The notes under the pieces: generated by a model
The model's database searches: none
Told to the model about the DNA's origin: nothing
The model's input: only the letters and a program-made list of their open reading frames with translations
Shown here: piece by piece, positions 1,831 to 15,094 of the stretch
Layout: each line of letters starts with the position of its first letter
Numbering within the stretch: the stretch's first letter is position 1
Assembly (NCBI GenBank): GCA_965223855.1
Contig: CBDCXM010000009.1
Span: 2,880,001-2,944,000, forward strand
DNA length: 64,000 nt
Origin: Candidatus Multivoradales bacterium
GTDB lineage: Bacteria > Acidobacteriota > Thermoanaerobaculia > Multivoradales > JAHEKO01
Reading direction: 5' to 3'
Translations under genes and position numbers: made by a program

Positions 1831-2316
1831 CTGCAATCGATCACCGTCAAGTACTGCTCCCGCTGCGAAGGCGAGTTCCAGGACTGGGTCGAGACGTGCC
1901 CGGACTGCGAGGTTGCCCTCGAGTCGCGATTCGACTCCGACCTGGTGCCGGGAACCGCCGGGATCGGGTCGCGAGCGCCTCAGCCCTCCCTTCAGGAAGA
2001 AGCCTACCTTCGCGAAGCCGAGCCGGAGTGGGCCTACCGCCTCGCCGAAGCGCTGGCCGCCGCCGGGCTTCCTCACGTGGTCCGCCCGCCGGCGGAGGTC
2101 AGGGAGGGCAAGAGAGTCACGCTGACCCTCTACGTCGAGGCGTCCGATCTCGAGCGCGCCAGGGTCATCGACCTCGAGATCCTCAGGGACGAGGTGCCGG
2201 ACACCGACGACCTCGTCTACGAGTTCGAGTCCGACACCTGCCCGTCCTGCGGCGCCCACGTCGTGCCTCAGGCCGCGCGCTGTGGCGAGTGTGAGCTGGA
2301 GTTTCCGGAGTACTAG
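1831..2316 (+). CDS. Double zinc-ribbon protein with DUF2007-like central domain
   Basis: In-frame N-terminal YCSRC..CPDC upstream of the ORF-track start (1945) and C-terminal CPSC..CGEC. GGAGGA at 1818-1823 is 7 nt before CTG 1831. Confidence 0.6.
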   Translation: MQSITVKYCSRCEGEFQDWVETCPDCEVALESRFDSDLVPGTAGIGSRAPQPSLQEEAYLREAEPEWAYRLAEALAAAGLPHVVRPPAEVREGKRVTLTLYVEASDLERARVIDLEILRDEVPDTDDLVYEFESDTCPSCGAHVVPQAARCGECELEFPEY

Positions 2317-7378: not shown

Positions 7379-8455
7379 CTACGGACGTTCGTCGTGAGCT
7401 CTCGACGCTCGCTTCCAAGCCTCGATAACAGATTCGAGAAGTGCTCCAAGTGGATTCCTGAGCGATGCCCAGTTCTTCGCCGTGATCTCCACCTCCAGGC
7501 ACGCCCAGGACTTTTCGATCCGGCGAGCCTGCGGGATCGCGGCGCAAAGGACCGTGATCGCATCCTCCGCGAGGTCTGAGACCCGGGGAGGGAGGTTGAG
7601 CAGGAGCGTGCTTCGTCTCTTCGTGTCGAGGTACAAGGTCGCATAGGAGCGGAGCGAGGGGCGTCCTTCCGAGGTCTGTTCCTGCAGGCTGAACGTGAAG
7701 GCGGTCTTCCCCGGCCAGCGATAGGCGGACGCCATGCGCGACTCGATGAAGTCAGCGACCTCGAGCAGGAGATCCCTGCTCCCGAGAGCTTCCGCGGACT
7801 CCAGCAGGACCCTGAGGTTGCCCGCCTTCGACTCGCTCTTGTTACGGGCGGCTCCCTGCTGCTGGGGCGGTGTCGTTTCGACTTGCTTTGCCAGCAGGGT
7901 TTGTCCCGCGACCTCGAAACCCTGGAAAGTAAGAAGTTGGATATCGATCGCCGACGCGGCGAGGAAGTTGACGATTCGCTTGGCCCGGTCATCGACGCCG
8001 AGCCCGACCAGCACCAGCCTGGGTGGCTCGGCCAGAGGTTCGTCGTTGTCTGGATAGGTCCGGTCGTACCAATCGACGAAGTCGTCGATACGTGGGATTC
8101 CATTCCTTCCCGAAGAGGCCTCGATCAAGCCGGCGAGTCGCTCGGTCGAGGCGTCTGCGAGGTCGGATCCGTAGTCCAGAATCTGCGCGACCGCCTCACG
8201 AGTGAGCATTCCCTTCTTGAGTTCGAAGATCACCACCCGGCCGTCGCCGTCGATCCCGAGTAGGTCGAGGGGGCCGCCCTCCGTCGGCACCTGGCGTCCG
8301 ACGAGAGTGAGGTCGCTCATCAGGAGATCCGGAGACTCCACGAGCAAGTCTTCCAGCACCGCCTCGGTTTCCGATGAGTCGACCATGGGCGCCGGAGCTG
8401 CAGCCACCGACCCGGAAGAGCCGGGGGAAACCGTCCAGACTTGGATTCTCTTCAC
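7379..8455 (-). CDS. NucS-like (DUF91) PD-(D/E)xK endonuclease domain protein
   Basis: E..LEDLL..SPDLL...GRQV.TEGGPLDLLGID..G.VVIFELK...REAVAQILDY. Confidence 0.75.
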   Translation of the reverse strand: MKRIQVWTVSPGSSGSVAAAPAPMVDSSETEAVLEDLLVESPDLLMSDLTLVGRQVPTEGGPLDLLGIDGDGRVVIFELKKGMLTREAVAQILDYGSDLADASTERLAGLIEASSGRNGIPRIDDFVDWYDRTYPDNDEPLAEPPRLVLVGLGVDDRAKRIVNFLAASAIDIQLLTFQGFEVAGQTLLAKQVETTPPQQQGAARNKSESKAGNLRVLLESAEALGSRDLLLEVADFIESRMASAYRWPGKTAFTFSLQEQTSEGRPSLRSYATLYLDTKRRSTLLLNLPPRVSDLAEDAITVLCAAIPQARRIEKSWACLEVEITAKNWASLRNPLGALLESVIEAWKRASRAHDERP

Positions 8456-8697: not shown

Positions 8698-9615
8698 ATG
8701 AAAGCCTATGTGGGAGTCACCGACTACGACTGGTTCCGATTCCTCAAGTCGGGCGATGTCGAGGAGGTCAACTTCTGGCAGCCGAGCGGGAGCAACCACT
8801 TCCGAGCGCTCGACCAAGGTGAGTTGTTCCTCTTCAAGCTCCATAGCCCGAGGAACTTCATCGTCGGCGGCGGCTTCTTCGCCCACTTCTCGATCATCCC
8901 GCACCGAACGGCTTGGGAGTTCTTCGGTGTCGCCAACGGCGCTGGGTCTTTCCAGGAGATGGAGACGAGGATCGGAAAGTACCGTCGAGTGGTCCCCGAC
9001 GCTCGGTCGAGCTTCGACATCGGCTGCATCCTCCTGGCCCAACCATTCTTTCTCGATGAAGAGCTTTGGATCCCGGTGCCGGAGGATTGGAAGCCGAACA
9101 TCGTTCGGGGGAAGACCTACGACCTGACCGACGGGCTAGGACGGGAGCTCTATGCTCAGCTTCAAGTAGCTCTGGCCGGGAATGTGGCTGAGTCGGAAGC
9201 CGTGGAGCCCAGCAGTCTCTACGGTGATCCGGTTCTCGTTCGCCCTCGCATCGGACAGGGCACCTTCAAGTCCCTCGTCGCCGACATCTATCAGCGGCGT
9301 TGCGCCGTTTCAGGAGAAAAGGCACTGCCAGCTCTCGACGCGGCGCATGTCCGTGCCGTCGCGAGCGGCGGTACTCACTCCGTAGACAACGGCATCCTGC
9401 TCAGATCGGACATTCACAGGCTGTTCGACGCCGGCTACGTCGGCATCACACCCGACTACCGCTTCATGGTCAGTCGTCGTCTCAAGGACGACTTCGACAA
9501 TGGAGAGCCCTACTATCCCTTGGCGGATCGTGAGATCTGGCTTCCCGCCGATCCCAGGAATCACCCGAATCGCGAGTACCTCGAAGAGCACTGCGACACG
9601 AGATTCCGTTACTGA
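8698..9615 (+). CDS. HNH endonuclease (putative restriction endonuclease)
   Basis: R.GQG.F...V..Y..RCAVSG....LDAAHV......G....NGILLRSDIHRLFD.G. N-terminal 'VGVTD.DWF..EVNFWQP' domain. Confidence 0.85.
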   Translation: MKAYVGVTDYDWFRFLKSGDVEEVNFWQPSGSNHFRALDQGELFLFKLHSPRNFIVGGGFFAHFSIIPHRTAWEFFGVANGAGSFQEMETRIGKYRRVVPDARSSFDIGCILLAQPFFLDEELWIPVPEDWKPNIVRGKTYDLTDGLGRELYAQLQVALAGNVAESEAVEPSSLYGDPVLVRPRIGQGTFKSLVADIYQRRCAVSGEKALPALDAAHVRAVASGGTHSVDNGILLRSDIHRLFDAGYVGITPDYRFMVSRRLKDDFDNGEPYYPLADREIWLPADPRNHPNREYLEEHCDTRFRY

Positions 9616-9641
9616 GCCAACAACCCGACGGATTGGACCTG

Positions 9642-9989
9642 ATGAACCTGACCGACCTTCGAGATCTACTCCGGGAGTTCGCCCGCGATCGTGACTGGGA
9701 TCAGTTCCATTCACCGAAGAACCTGGCGATGGCACTCAGCGTAGAGGCTGCCGAGCTTCTCGAGCAATTCCAGTGGCTGACCGAGGGCGAGTCGAGGGAG
9801 CTGGACAAGCAGCAACTCGAGAGCGCGGCCGAGGAGATCGCGGACATCCAGATCTACCTCGTCCGGCTCGCGGACAAACTGGGGATAGACATCCTCGAAG
9901 CAGCCAGCACCAAGATGCGCGCCAATGCCGAGAAGTACCCGGCCGAGTCTGTCCGCGGCAGCGCGAAGAAGTACAGCGAGTACGAGTAG
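9642..9989 (+). CDS. MazG-like (DCTPP1/RS21-C6 type) nucleotide pyrophosphohydrolase
   Basis: RDWDQFHSPKNLAMALSVEAAELLE.FQW...EEIAD...KM..N..KYP. Confidence 0.9.
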   Translation: MNLTDLRDLLREFARDRDWDQFHSPKNLAMALSVEAAELLEQFQWLTEGESRELDKQQLESAAEEIADIQIYLVRLADKLGIDILEAASTKMRANAEKYPAESVRGSAKKYSEYE

Positions 9990-9998
9990 GCCGTCCTG

Positions 9999-12395
9999 AT
10001 GCTGGTCTACACGGCCACCAAGAGCGAGTTCGTCGCCGACGTTCAGTCGAATCGCATCGAGGCGAAGATCCTCGCCGAGTTCCAGTCGCGACTCGGCTTT
10101 TCGACCGGCGCGAGCGAGATCGCTGCCTGGCGGAACTCGATGCAGTACATGCAGAACGTCCTACTCGACGACGGCATCCCGGACGACAGCGGGGTAGCGA
10201 TCGAGTACCGCATTCCGATGACCGCGAAGAGGATCGACTTCATCCTGACGGGCCGGGACGGAAGCGATCGTGAGTCCGTGGTGATCATCGAACTGAAGCA
10301 ATGGTCAGAGGCGACATCGACGCCGCTCGATGCCATCGTTGAGACCTTCGTCGGAGGAGGCATGCGCGAGGTCGCTCATCCTTCGTACCAGGCGTGGACC
10401 TACGCGGCACTCCTGGACGATTTCAATCAGGAGGTGCAGAACTCCGATCTCAGGCTCGCTCCCTGCGCCTACCTACACAACCTCGAAGACGGTTCGTCTT
10501 TGCGAGAGGAGCACTATCGCGAGCATCTCGACCGGGCACCACTCTTCATCCGTTCAGATGTCGACCGACTGGCCCGTTTCATCAAGAACTATGTTCGCAA
10601 GGGCGACAGAGACGACCTGCTGTACAGGATCGATCAGGGGCGGATCCGCCCCTCGAAGAACTTGGCGGACAGCCTCAGTTCGCTGCTCGAGGGGAACACC
10701 GAGTTCCACATGATCGACGACCAGAAGGTCGTCTACGAGAAAGCGTTGGAGCTGGCAGCGAAGGCGGCGGAGGGGGAGAAACAGGTCCTGATCGTGGAGG
10801 GCGGACCGGGAACCGGGAAATCGGTGGTGGCCATCAACCTTCTGGTGGAACTCACTCGGAGACTGAAGACCACGCAGTACGTGACTCGAAACGCTGCTCC
10901 CCGCGCCGTGTACAAGAGCAAGCTCACAGGGACGATGACGGGGACTCGCTTCGACAACCTGTTCCGCAGCTCTGGCGGCTTCATGGAATCAGAACCGGAC
11001 GTCTTCGACTGTCTCATCGTCGACGAAGCCCACCGTCTCAACGAGAAGTCGGGGCTCTACCAGAACCTGGGCGTCAACCAGGTCAAGGAACTCATCGACG
11101 CCTCCAGATCGACCGTCTTCTTCGTCGACGATCGACAACGGGTCACCCTGAAGGACATCGGCACGGCATCGGAGATCCGGCATTGGGCCGCCATCGCAGG
11201 AGCTGAAGTGACCGAGCTGAAGCTGGCTTCCCAGTTCCGGTGCAACGGATCCGACGGCTATCTCGCCTGGCTCGACAACGCCCTTCAGATCGAGTCCACG
11301 GCCGTCGAGACACTCGAGGGCATCGATTTCGATTTCCGCGTGGTCGACTCGGCAGCTGAACTCCGCGATCTGATCCTCGACCGCAATGTCGCCGACAACA
11401 AGGCGAGGTTGGTGGCCGGCTACTGCTGGCCGTGGGCGAGCAAGAAGAATCCCGCAGCGATGGACATCGAGCTTGAGGACGGTGCGTTCCGGATGCAGTG
11501 GAACCTGACCAGGGACGGAGGGAACTGGATCATGATGCCGGACTCCGTCGAGCAGGTGGGGTGCATTCACACCTGTCAGGGGCTTGAGCTCGACTACGTC
11601 GGCGTCATCCTCGGGCCGGATCTGGTCGTGCGAAACGGCGAGGTGGTGACGGATGCGACCGAGCGCGCCAGCCAGGATCGCTCCGTGTTCGGCTACAAAA
11701 AGCGGAGCAGAGAAGACCCCGTGGGGATGGCGAGACTGGCAGCCGAGATCATCAAGAACACGTATCGCACCTTGATGACGCGAGGACAGAAGGGGTGCTA
11801 CGTGCATTCTGTCGATCCTGAGACGAACGCCTACCTCAAGGATGCGATTGGATCTCGAGTTCTTGGAAACGCCGAGTCGGAGGTGGAGCCGCTTCACCCC
11901 TTCCCTGTCGTCTCCGGAGAAGAGCTGCGGCCCTGGGAGAATGCCGTTCCGCTCTACGACCTCCAAGTGGCTGCTGGCGCCCTCAGCGAGGCGACCGAGC
12001 CCGAGGTTCTCGATTGGGTGGCGCTCCCGGAGCACTATCGAATCAGCGAGGGGCTCTTCGTCGCGCGTGTTGTTGGGGAATCGATGAACCGACGTGTCGC
12101 GAACGGTTCCTGGTGCCTCTTCAAGGCTCACCCGACCGGGAGTCGGGCTGGAAGAGTAGTGCTGGCGCAGCACCGAGAGATTTCCGATCCGGAGCTCGGC
12201 GGGCAATACACCCTCAAGCTCTACGAAGGCGGGCCGGCACTGGACGAGAGCGGCAGCCGAAGCGGTAGCGTCATCCTTAGACCGATGTCCACCGATTCAC
12301 GGTTTCAGCCCCTGGTTCTGTCTCAAGAAGTCGCCGAGGGACTGTCGGTGCTGGCTGAGCTGCTGGGAGTGCTCCTTCCCGGCTCGTCGCGTTAG
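9999..12395 (+). CDS. DUF2075 (Schlafen group 3-like) nuclease-helicase with C-terminal S24/LexA-like peptidase domain
   Basis: N-terminal IEY..P...RIDF...IIELKQW, Walker [33 protein letters not shown]. Tail has [17 protein letters not shown] and YTLK. Confidence 0.85.
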
Positions 12396-12441
12396 TCGAT
12401 CGCGAGAAAGCCGCGCAGAATCGAGTGGCACCTCCAGAGGG

Positions 12442-12546
12442 GGTGAAGGGGAGGATGACGCGGCCGTACTGCGACTGTTTGAAGTCGCCGCGCAGGAGGT
12501 CGGCGACGGACCAGATGAAGGAGACCTTTTCGGAGAAGCGGTTCAT
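12442..12546 (-). pseudogene. hsdM: Truncated 5' fragment of a type I restriction-modification methyltransferase gene
   Basis: [35 protein letters not shown] matches the HsdM N-terminus, then similarity stops abruptly. GAGG SD upstream. Confidence 0.75.
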
Positions 12547-12568: not shown

Positions 12569-13705
12569 CTATTGGAGTGCGCCGCTCTTGTGGGTTTCGA
12601 GGAACCAATCGAGGACTACCAGGAAGTCGTTCATCCTGGATTCTTCGGCCAGCAGTGCGATGGGTATCGACGGCCGCTTGCGGAGGCGATCGCGGGGGAG
12701 TTCGATCCCGTCGATGGAGGTGAAGCGCTCGAACAGCTCTTCGAGGACGGCGTCGTCGTCGAAGGGGGCGCGACGCAGAAGGTGTTGAAACTGGAACTCG
12801 ACGCCGCCTCCGGTCCACAACGCGATCACACTCGACCAGACGCCATTGACGGTCAGGCCAGGGAAGAAGGACCCGGACTGGGCACCCTCGCCCCAGTAGA
12901 ACTCCGGCATCCGGTCTTTAGCCCAGGTGAAGAGCCTGCGGGCCGGAGCTACGGCCGCCGGATCGTTCGCCTCGAGCTCGCGGAAGAACGACTCTTCGTC
13001 CCACTTCCTCTTGGTGGTACCCGATTTCCGTTGGGTCGCCGCCGTTTGGCCGAGGAGCCTGGGAACGAGTGTCTGCAAGCCGCGGCCCGAGAACTGCTTG
13101 ATCTCCACGGCGAGGACTTCGGTCGTTCCCATCTGCTCGTTGAGGAACTCGACGACTCTTCGAAGCTCTGAGGGTACCCAGTCGGCAACGAACAGGAGGC
13201 GAAGGCGCCCTGCCGAGAGGTTCGCGCCGACCCGGACCCAAAAGTCGTCGTAGTCGAGGTCCTCCGGTTCTTCTTCGAGGAGGTCGGCTACCCTGGCAGC
13301 GGCGGCCGCGGAGTCCTCGTGTCGCTCCTCGAAGCGGCGGCGCAGCTCCTGAACCGGCAGGTGGGCGACGAGATTGGCGGCGTAGTCGAGTACTTGCCCT
13401 ACAACCTCTCGTCGAATGCGAGGATCGTCCGCACGCTTGACCTCAACAAGAGTCGGTATAGCGTCCTGATCGACGAACAGGTGGTCGAGCGACCACCAGT
13501 TGCCGCCTTCGGGTTCGTTGGGAATACCGCACTCCCGGTCGATGAGAATCCACCGGCGGGGAGTATGCTCGTTGATCTGATCCCCACCGAGCAGGTCGGG
13601 GTAGTCCTCGAGGAGGGCCTGAAGAAGATCCTCGGAGTCGTAGTCGGTCTCGTCGAGGGGGCTCAGGGAGCCCTTCTGATCGAGGAGGAAGATGCGCCGA
13701 GGCAT
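12569..13705 (-). CDS. NucS-like PD-(D/E)xK nuclease domain protein
   Basis: SEDLLQ.LL..YPDLL...LDHLFVD......LVEVK....[14 protein letters not shown]-terminal domain follows a 'KWDEESFF' linker. Confidence 0.75.
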
Positions 13706-14622: not shown

Positions 14623-14883
14623 TCAGGCTTCGTCGATCGCGGCCTTGAGCGGGAACCTCTCCGGGTGCTCGATGGACTCGACGGCGAGGTCCACATCGAG
14701 TTCTGGCCAGTAGAGGTGGTGGTTCTGCGGACGCTCCACGTTCAGGATCGCCTCGACCGATGCTCCCTTGAACCAGGGGAACTCCTCGAAGGGAAGGAAG
14801 AGTTCACGATCCCCAAGAAACACCCAGAAACCGTGCCGAGAGATGTTGGTGATCTCAGCCTCCGAAATGACGCTGCCAGGCAT
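14623..14883 (-). CDS. DUF2442 protein
   Basis: ISRHGFWV...ELFLPFEEFPWF...I.NV......LYWPELDVDL..ESIEHPERFPL. Confidence 0.85.
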   Translation of the reverse strand: MPGSVISEAEITNISRHGFWVFLGDRELFLPFEEFPWFKGASVEAILNVERPQNHHLYWPELDVDLAVESIEHPERFPLKAAIDEA

Positions 14884-15094
14884 TCCAGATCTCCCGCTCG
14901 TGTTCCTCGATGAGTTTCTCTATCCGGCGAAGGTCCGGGCTTCCGAAGCCGTAGTTCCTGGCGAGCTCGATCTCGGGCTCGACCCAGAACTTCGCCTCAC
15001 CTTCTGCCGAGACGACATGGATGTGGATCCTGGGTTCCTCCCGCGAGAAAAAGAAGAAGCGGAACGGTCCCGCGCGGAAGACTGTCGGACTCAC
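14855..15094 (-). CDS. DUF4160 protein (partner of DUF2442; TA-like pair)
   Basis: MSPTVFR...FRFFFFSREE.RIHIHV....GEAKFW.EP.I.LA.N.G...W..HF. Confidence 0.85.
   Translation of the reverse strand: MSPTVFRAGPFRFFFFSREEPRIHIHVVSAEGEAKFWVEPEIELARNYGFGSPDLRRIEKLIEEHEREIWNAWQRHFGG

Follow-up and report, generated by a model that had tools for sequence, protein, structure and literature searches.

A run of three plus-strand genes at 8698-12395 was analysed in a 64,000-nt stretch of DNA from a Candidatus Multivoradales bacterium (contig CBDCXM010000009.1, positions 2,880,001 to 2,944,000), hereafter called the window. The genes encode an HNH nuclease, a MazG-like pyrophosphatase, and a DUF2075 nuclease-helicase that ends in a LexA/UmuD-like S24 domain. 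The conserved unit is the pair of MazG-like pyrophosphatase and DUF2075 nuclease-helicase, not the trio. As a whole, the locus is probably best explained as a two-gene MazG and nuclease-helicase defence module that is controlled by its S24 domain and is separate from the HNH gene. The initial annotation of this DNA had proposed one anti-phage system of three genes; its domain assignments, the defence setting, and the link between MazG and helicase stand, whereas the trio as one unit does not. The main interest lies in the possible S24 switch and in the widespread, unnamed pair rather than in the three-gene combination.

The pyrophosphatase and nuclease-helicase pair

In a scan of genome contigs (genome_contigs, one genome per species), at least 592 stretches were matched, at least 589 of which encode a relative of the helicase. 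The best 80 loci were retained with flanks of 6 kb, in which neighbouring genes were called by tblastn and profile searches. The helicase gene has a MazG-like neighbour on its own strand in 62 of these 80 loci. This neighbour is at most 59 nt upstream or overlaps the helicase gene in 52 loci, and lies at most 123 nt downstream in eight, including a Halomonas-centred clade; in the other two it is further upstream, at 705 nt in L049 (with a RadC gene between) and at 175 nt in L066 (a partial copy). The pair is also found on an archaeal plasmid (Halalkalicoccus) and a Bacillota plasmid (Priestia), where the genes are annotated as 'nucleotide pyrophosphohydrolase' and 'DUF2075', and in the record of Microcystis phage Mwe-JY31 (L090). 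The two genes travel together in many bacterial phyla, in archaea, on plasmids, and in a phage record, and the proposed tie between a DCTPP1-type MazG enzyme and a DUF2075 nuclease-helicase is thus borne out.

The HNH family of the window occurs in two of the 80 loci, downstream of the pair in L004 and upstream of it in L066, whose helicases belong to different clades, and it stands without MazG or DUF2075 nearby in all four plasmid records. Because MazG is present in 62 loci but the window-type HNH in two, and HNH stands alone on plasmids, the pair and not the trio is the conserved unit. The initial annotation had asked for a survey of co-conservation and had named its absence as speaking against a single system; the survey upheld MazG and helicase but not HNH, and the idea of one conserved three-gene system falls. 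All 909 neighbourhood open reading frames (ORFs) were also clustered all-against-all, and no third gene family was found in more than seven loci. The recurrent neighbours are further defence genes, namely RhuM/Fic (seven loci), AbiEi (five), and PLD-helicase-DUF3427, McrB-like, and McrC-like genes (four each); Mrr, HD, EEP, a second DUF2075, and Schlafen AlbA_2 are single cases. Since HNH is no more frequent beside the pair than clearly separate systems such as RhuM/Fic, AbiEi, DUF3427, and McrB/McrC-like genes, it does not belong to the conserved unit; it may be one of several swappable nuclease accessories.

Relatives of the helicase are patchily distributed across phyla, with about 55% identity between distant phyla, and the nearest ones (73% identical) are metagenomic. 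A Streptomyces homologue (32% identical) lacks MazG; therefore, the MazG link is specific to the helicase subfamily of the window.

The MazG-like gene (plus strand) ends at 9989 and starts either at ATG 9642, giving 115 amino acids (aa), or at TTG 9633, giving 118 aa. Its product, at 9642-9989, is assigned to the DCTPP1/RS21-C6-type all-alpha nucleoside triphosphate pyrophosphatases by Pfam PF12643 (E 1.3e-15; 57.9 bits against a cut-off of 27) and by PDB matches to DCTPP1 of mouse and human, which extend over almost the entire protein (E 1e-23). Residues E35, E38, E41, E65, and D68, which form the metal-binding pattern E-x-x-E...E-x-x-D, are invariant in 34 sequences. No PADLOC profile matched this protein.

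The nuclease-helicase gene (9999-12395, plus strand) is an ORF of 798 aa whose product consists of an N-terminal domain, a superfamily 1B (SF1B) DUF2075 core, a linker, and the C-terminal S24-like domain. The core (10779-11816, plus strand; residues 261-606) matches Pfam SLFN-g3_helicase/DUF2075 (PF09848) at E 1.7e-101, and its Walker A (GGPGTGKS, 268-275) and Walker B (DEAH, 342-345) motifs are invariant in an alignment of 24 sequences. Foldseek searches with the model returned RecD, RecD2, SLFN11, Dda, and Dna2 at E 2e-10 to 1e-6, although the whole-model search is dominated by the helicase core and did not match the N- and C-terminal folds separately. The N-terminal domain (9999-10718, plus strand; residues 1-240) carries a PD-(D/E)xK-type motif, D80 and E98-x-K100, and is a putative nuclease: the three residues are invariant in the same 24 sequences and lie on consecutive strands of the AlphaFold2 (AF2) model. 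An Atlas search with this domain returned unnamed clusters; the nearest named cluster was NERD (0.84), no more than a lead. With HNH_2 found in the upstream gene, all three domain assignments of the initial annotation are confirmed, and the catalytic motifs are intact in all three genes.

Several variants of the arrangement were observed (positions here and below that follow a locus number are those of that locus). In L008, L013, L015, L017, L021, and L030, of the Halomonas-centred clade, MazG comes after the helicase gene at a distance of about 120 nt and is often followed by AbiEi; a relative of that clade, the Haliea locus L011, has no MazG. Genes for large TPR proteins lie directly upstream of the pair in L045 (3686-5668) and L090 (1629-3647), where a 'TPR-S' sensor match is below the cut-off in both, and a large TPR protein gene precedes the helicase gene alone in L027 (4814-5965); such genes may represent another accessory variant. 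Two different DUF2075 genes stand in tandem with an overlap of a few bases in L024 (1307-5705), the first of which encodes an S24 tail and is preceded by MazG. Close linkage of the pair to an endonuclease/exonuclease/phosphatase-family gene was observed twice, with that gene 21 nt downstream on Halalkalicoccus jeotgali plasmid 1 (L081, 3648-7051) and upstream in a Rickettsiales metagenome-assembled genome (L032, 4808-5587). On the Priestia aryabhattai plasmid (L082, 2548-3941), a gene with an MrcB_N domain, a McrB-type reader domain, overlaps the MazG start of the pair, which has a mutT gene and a type I restriction-modification system as neighbours.

The LexA/UmuD-like tail of the nuclease-helicase

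The C-terminal module (11940-12392, plus strand) is assigned to LexA/UmuD-like S24 autopeptidases on alignment and profile evidence, and as an intact autoproteolytic module it had no part in the reading of the initial annotation. The predicted scissile bond, A659-G660 (nt 11973-11978), lies in a conserved A-[A/C]-G; the predicted catalytic serine is S695 (nt 12081-12083) in G-x-S-M, and the predicted catalytic lysine is K740 (nt 12216-12218). All three features are invariant across 23 aligned tails. A search of the region as a single sequence against the PDB gave nothing useful; a profile built from the tails matched LexA/UmuD chains only (16 of 16 matches, best E 0.005), with VAAG aligned onto the LexA cleavage site and GeSM onto the LexA serine motif. 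Many helicase homologues carry a precomputed PF00717 assignment, and most S24 fusions score 26-49 bits. No helix-turn-helix (HTH) domain was found in the window protein or in 74 Pfam-scanned fusions; therefore, the S24-tailed protein is not a repressor.

The tail is present in 47 of the 80 helicase loci and absent from 33. On a FastTree tree of the helicase core (76 rows; L006, L008, L063, L069, and L076 dropped because of in-frame stops), its presence changes ten times, and at least seven of these changes are forced by well-supported branches. A single gain of the tail was considered and rejected, since the tree requires seven to ten changes. In L043 (9675-13061, minus strand) the tail recurs on the PLD-helicase-DUF3427 protein encoded next to the helicase (profile E 1.5e-45), and the DUF3427 homologues in L004, L018, and L076 are without it.

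The tail profile gave 2605 matches among 1.84 billion representative sequences, with at least 559 clusters (at 50% identity) at E<=1e-30. Among the 150 representatives listed (P0242-P0391), which are 119-1878 aa long, the module is nearly always C-terminal; the serine and lysine are kept in all 150, and all four features in 139. Because 30 of the 150 lack an initial M, many of the shorter ones are probably incomplete. Pfam was run on the 74 with a length of 300 aa or more: 51 have a recognisable N-terminal family, which in 50 cases is of a restriction or defence type, and in 23 nothing besides S24 was recognised. DUF2075 is the most frequent (19, two of them also with GIY-YIG), followed by the Type ISP C-terminal domain (8), DUF3427 (4), the Type I HsdR C-terminal domain (3), and an MrfA-type Zn domain (3). 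Two cases each were found of an Eco57I/MmeI-type or N6 methylase, AlwI, PLD, and ResIII/SNF2 only, and one each of LlaJI, the McrBC family (McrC-like), RE_endonuc, a Type I S subunit, Schlafen AlbA_2, and a Topoisomerase-type zinc ribbon. Judged from sequence, the tail is an intact-looking, modular autoprotease that is shared with restriction and defence enzymes.

It is proposed that the S24 domain cleaves itself at A659-G660, most likely stimulated by filaments of RecA on single-stranded DNA (ssDNA). The product of such a cleavage would resemble the natural S24-less forms (616-669 aa), and the tail is therefore read as a removable inhibitory cap, whose removal would license the nuclease-helicase when ssDNA or DNA damage appears. 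The main rival to this licensing cap is a switch for restriction alleviation, in which RecA-stimulated autocleavage would disable or delocalise the enzyme upon damage to the host DNA and so limit self-killing. Proteolytic alleviation of Type I restriction is triggered by DNA damage in Escherichia coli, and the module is attached to classical restriction enzymes for which no activation is required (the HsdR C-terminus, Type ISP, MmeI/Eco57I-like, AlwI, and LlaJI); the conserved catalytic and cleavage-site residues would also suit this role. However, the cleaved form would equal the forms naturally without S24 in the 33 loci, which are presumably active, so that loss of the tail is unlikely to inactivate the enzyme. 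Such a switch is considered quite improbable.

Returning to the tail in general, it is a tentative suggestion that this LexA/UmuD-like self-cleaving domain represents a widespread and undescribed post-translational switch on DNA-targeting immunity enzymes. If this is true and the trigger is RecA on ssDNA, restriction and Nhi-like defence would be wired to the SOS signal, to be either licensed or shut off by it. A response of the tail to RecA filaments would account for the way in which many restriction and defence nucleases detect infection or are kept from damaging their own cell. In the window, the switch would control a nuclease-helicase that is partnered with a DCTPP1-like nucleotide-pool enzyme, a bacterial parallel to Schlafen-11 at the ssDNA of stressed forks.

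The upstream PUA-HNH gene and the surrounding island

The gene upstream of the pair (8698-9615, plus strand) is an ORF of 305 aa. Its product matches Pfam HNH_2 at residues 202-250 (E 3.7e-11), and H217, N231, and H240, the catalytic His...Asn...His, are invariant in an alignment of 37 sequences. The AF2 model built from that alignment has a predicted local distance difference test score (pLDDT) of 80-93 over residues 1-160, and a PUA-superfamily (ASCH/EVE-like) domain was recognised by Foldseek at residues 1 to ~165. The N-terminus matched the EVE-HNH enzyme VcaM4I (PDB code: 6yex; E 4e-6), a Zymomonas ASCH protein (E 7e-5), and the ASCH domain of TRIP4; the ASCH matches range from E 7e-5 to 3e-4 with target template modelling (TM) scores of 0.6-0.65, and the probabilities of the VcaM4I and ASCH matches are 0.99-1.0. 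On the modelled fold, the protein is a PUA-fold plus HNH enzyme, the architecture of type IV (modification-dependent) restriction enzymes, and the gene is a further candidate for a type IV enzyme of this known design. Its identity as a phosphorothioate-dependent endonuclease (NCBIfam NF045808) was tried and rejected, with 56.2 bits against a cut-off of 180 and the HNH part alone matched. The family is very large, with 6564 matches among 8000 scored candidates, and relatives are 55-73% identical among the top 120 matches listed. The gene is probably autonomous or an exchangeable accessory.

Two HNH genes lie between integrase and CI repressor in the 186/P2-like Vibrio phage 10N.286.55.A5_PE003 (L089; PQ189364.1, 1885-4214). 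The second is overlapped by a MazG-like gene whose product is 53.5% identical to that of the window, no DUF2075 helicase gene is present, and the cassette adjoins a RiboL-PSP-HEPN gene and a type II restriction endonuclease gene.

In the window, the three genes are co-oriented and separated by gaps of 26 and 9 nt when the MazG start at 9642 is used (17 nt for the first gap with TTG 9633), and their neighbours are on the minus strand, as had been described. Their third-position GC content of 0.75-0.82 is the pattern of real genes in a high-GC genome. Neither a sigma-70-like promoter nor a plus-strand terminator was found between the three genes in consensus scans, which are uninformative at high GC. 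The GC content of the island is 0.60-0.63 over 8-15 kb, compared with 0.66-0.73 in the flanks within the window, and a repeat scan of the window revealed no island-boundary repeats.

The three genes are bracketed by two distantly related NucS_C-like/PDC-S11 genes, both on the minus strand and both regarded as context rather than as members of the unit. The upstream one (7379-8455) matches Pfam NucS_C (6e-8) and the PADLOC candidate PDC-S11 (5.3e-33), the downstream one (12569-13705) matches PDC-S11 (1.3e-13), and their products are weakly similar (33% identity over 91 aa, E 3e-6). Between the latter and the helicase gene lies an hsdM stub (12277-12546, minus strand), in which about 35 first codons are recognisable (HsdM_N at residues 9-35; MTase_I 1.3e-11 over residues 2-35), and whose ORF shares 119 nt with the 3' end of the helicase gene. 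Most of a type I restriction-modification system seems to have given way to the trio or to some larger segment. At the island edge, a DUF2442/DUF4160 gene pair (14623-15094, minus strand; Pfam 6e-17 and 1.5e-16) is found, which we take to be toxin-antitoxin-like. The defence-island setting described earlier holds in these respects and in the lower GC content. Overall, a horizontally acquired defence island with the MazG and nuclease-helicase pair as its core is, on balance, the likely joint explanation of the window.

Further upstream, a gene assigned to the ParE/RelE toxin family (2380-2661) is adjoined by a small ORF (1945-2316, plus strand) with a weak match to the '(seleno)protein DG' zinc ribbon (27 bits against a cut-off of 130). 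Still further upstream, at 878-1792, is a gene for a YgjP-like metallopeptidase.

Proposed function and relation to known systems

By analogy with Nhi, the nuclease-helicase would attack phage DNA or replication intermediates. Mammalian DCTPP1 prefers 5-modified dCTP, and the predicted substrates of the MazG-like enzyme are dCTP-type, probably base-modified deoxynucleoside triphosphates (dNTPs). Their hydrolysis might starve phages that build modified DNA of modified dNTPs. Alternatively, it might prevent modified nucleotides that are released by the breakdown of phage DNA from entering the host chromosome, and so avoid cutting by type IV enzymes, an option which is relevant because type IV enzymes are frequent neighbours of the pair. 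The upstream PUA-HNH protein would act alone as a type IV enzyme and be at most an interchangeable nuclease add-on.

Several observations count against this explanation. The defence role and the substrates of all three enzymes are predicted rather than taken from experiment, and the RecA dependence of the S24 cleavage is pure analogy. The window protein scores 23.2 bits with Pfam Peptidase_S24, against a cut-off of 23.3, and the PDB matches of the tail profile are weak (E 0.005-0.8). For the N-terminal domain of the helicase protein, no Pfam family was recognised and no PDB match was obtained by single-sequence search. MazG is not obligatory: 14 loci with sufficient flanks lack it, the other four of the 18 MazG-less loci having at most 350 nt of upstream sequence, and five of the 62 MazG matches are weak or partial (L006, L012, L026, L066, and L069). 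An HNH gene of some kind is found within 100 nt and on the same strand in seven of the 80 loci (L004, L044, L056, L066, L077, L078, and L079). Together with this spacing and that in the window, the overlap of HNH and MazG-like genes in the Vibrio prophage L089 leaves room for a functional link between HNH and MazG. The closest relatives of the HNH protein (P0123) and of the helicase (P0004) are each listed with a longest contig of 9022 bp, which suggests that the trio is kept among close kin.

These last three points also favour a true three-gene system, in which PUA-HNH would cut modified phage DNA, the breaks would feed the nuclease-helicase by way of RecA and S24, and MazG would clear modified dNTPs. 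Such a system would suit the close spacing of the trio on one strand as well, and the same HNH family has joined the pair in L004 and L066, with helicases of different clades. The seven HNH-linked loci are not seven independent events, since L078 is nearly the same as L079, and three others (L044, L056, and L077) fall in one clade. Their HNH genes belong to several unrelated types (HNH_2 with differing N-termini, HNH_4), and all seven loci have S24-less helicases, so that the relay from break to RecA to S24 would not be the general design. Against the three genes as a system stand, moreover, the two loci with the window family, the lack of any third family beyond seven loci, and the great size of the HNH family, which stands alone on plasmids. 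A true three-gene system is therefore considered unlikely.

A role in DNA repair or housekeeping was also weighed, with an SOS-linked nuclease-helicase acting at damaged forks and a house-cleaning pyrophosphatase removing damaged dNTPs. In its favour are the resemblance of the S24 domain to LexA and UmuD, the house-cleaning role of DCTPP1 in mammals, and the action of SLFN11-type helicases at stressed forks (PMC6765204). This role is very improbable, however, given the patchy phyletic pattern with about 55% identity across distant phyla, the lower-GC island, the occurrence of the module on plasmids and in phage records, and the restriction, Abi, and toxin-antitoxin genes in its neighbourhood.

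Helicases of the DUF2075/Schlafen-group-3 kind act as immune effectors in organisms ranging from bacteria to humans. The subfamily of the window offers two handles for their control: a predicted dNTP pyrophosphatase that looks like an obligate partner, and a LexA-like tail that is putatively self-cleaving. Since the pair is common (at least 592 matches in the scan, in many phyla and archaea), its function would annotate many genomes, and the PUA-HNH enzyme adds a candidate reader of modified DNA.

Among known enzymes, the HNH protein resembles the TspA15I/VcaM4I/CmeDI PUA-HNH group: it has a PUA-fold reader and a C-terminal HNH, is of similar length (~305 aa compared with 309 aa for VcaM4I), and has no intact methyltransferase gene nearby. 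The architecture of PUA fold and HNH gives modification-dependent (type IV) restriction, as was shown by Lutz et al. 2019 (PMC6765204). The window protein differs from VcaM4I and TspA15I in that phmmer aligns the HNH part alone (residues 179-265, E 6e-6), with no sequence match for the N-terminal domain, and in that its fold matches favour ASCH as much as EVE.

The MazG-like protein resembles mammalian dCTP pyrophosphatase 1 (DCTPP1/RS21-C6) in overall sequence (E 1e-23) and in the conserved metal-binding acidic residues; it differs in being prokaryotic, in having its gene beside that of a nuclease-helicase, and in that its substrate class is predicted. With LexA, UmuD, and lambda CI, the tail shares the Ala/Cys-Gly scissile site, the G-x-S-M serine, and the downstream lysine. 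Unlike in LexA and CI, the module is without HTH and ends nucleases, helicases, and restriction enzymes. Nothing was found on S24 tails of restriction or defence enzymes in the literature searched, which does not include most subscription journals and supplements.

The nuclease-helicase itself is most like Nhi (Staphylococcus epidermidis SERP2475), the Nhi-like proteins, and AbiO, with which it shares an anti-phage context and a layout in which an N-terminal domain, here a putative nuclease, precedes an SF1B helicase of the DUF2075 type. This organisation is given for Nhi (bioRxiv 10.1101/776245) and for Nhi-like proteins (Millman et al., 10.1101/2022.05.11.491447). According to the former source, Nhi is proposed to degrade phage DNA or replication intermediates, and in vitro the full-length protein is almost inactive and its N-terminal fragment active. 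By analogy, the latter contrast hints at, and would fit, proteolytic control. The PADLOC profiles of Nhi (E 3.1e-9) and AbiO (E 1.4e-9) match the window protein over residues ~235-416 alone and not over the full length. Its best PADLOC match is the candidate PDC-S41 (E 1.1e-18, residues 4-288), which covers the N-terminal nuclease region and the P-loop; the best stretch, however, spans 257 of 657 profile positions, and PDC-S41 is a single-gene candidate without MazG and without S24.

No PADLOC system covers the pair or the trio, in agreement with the initial annotation, which could match the gene set to no named system. A literature search returned nothing joining DUF2075/Schlafen with MazG or a pyrophosphohydrolase, although a prior mention elsewhere is possible, subscription journals being mostly uncovered. 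Nhi has been described as a single gene, whereas the helicase of the window has a conserved MazG partner and an S24 autoprotease tail. The conserved MazG neighbour argues that this helicase subfamily works as a pair, unlike the single-gene Nhi. Therefore, overall, the pair is a candidate for a widely conserved, still unnamed anti-phage unit, and what appears to be new is that a candidate nuclease-helicase defence of the Nhi type has both a conserved nucleotide-pyrophosphatase partner and a tail resembling LexA.

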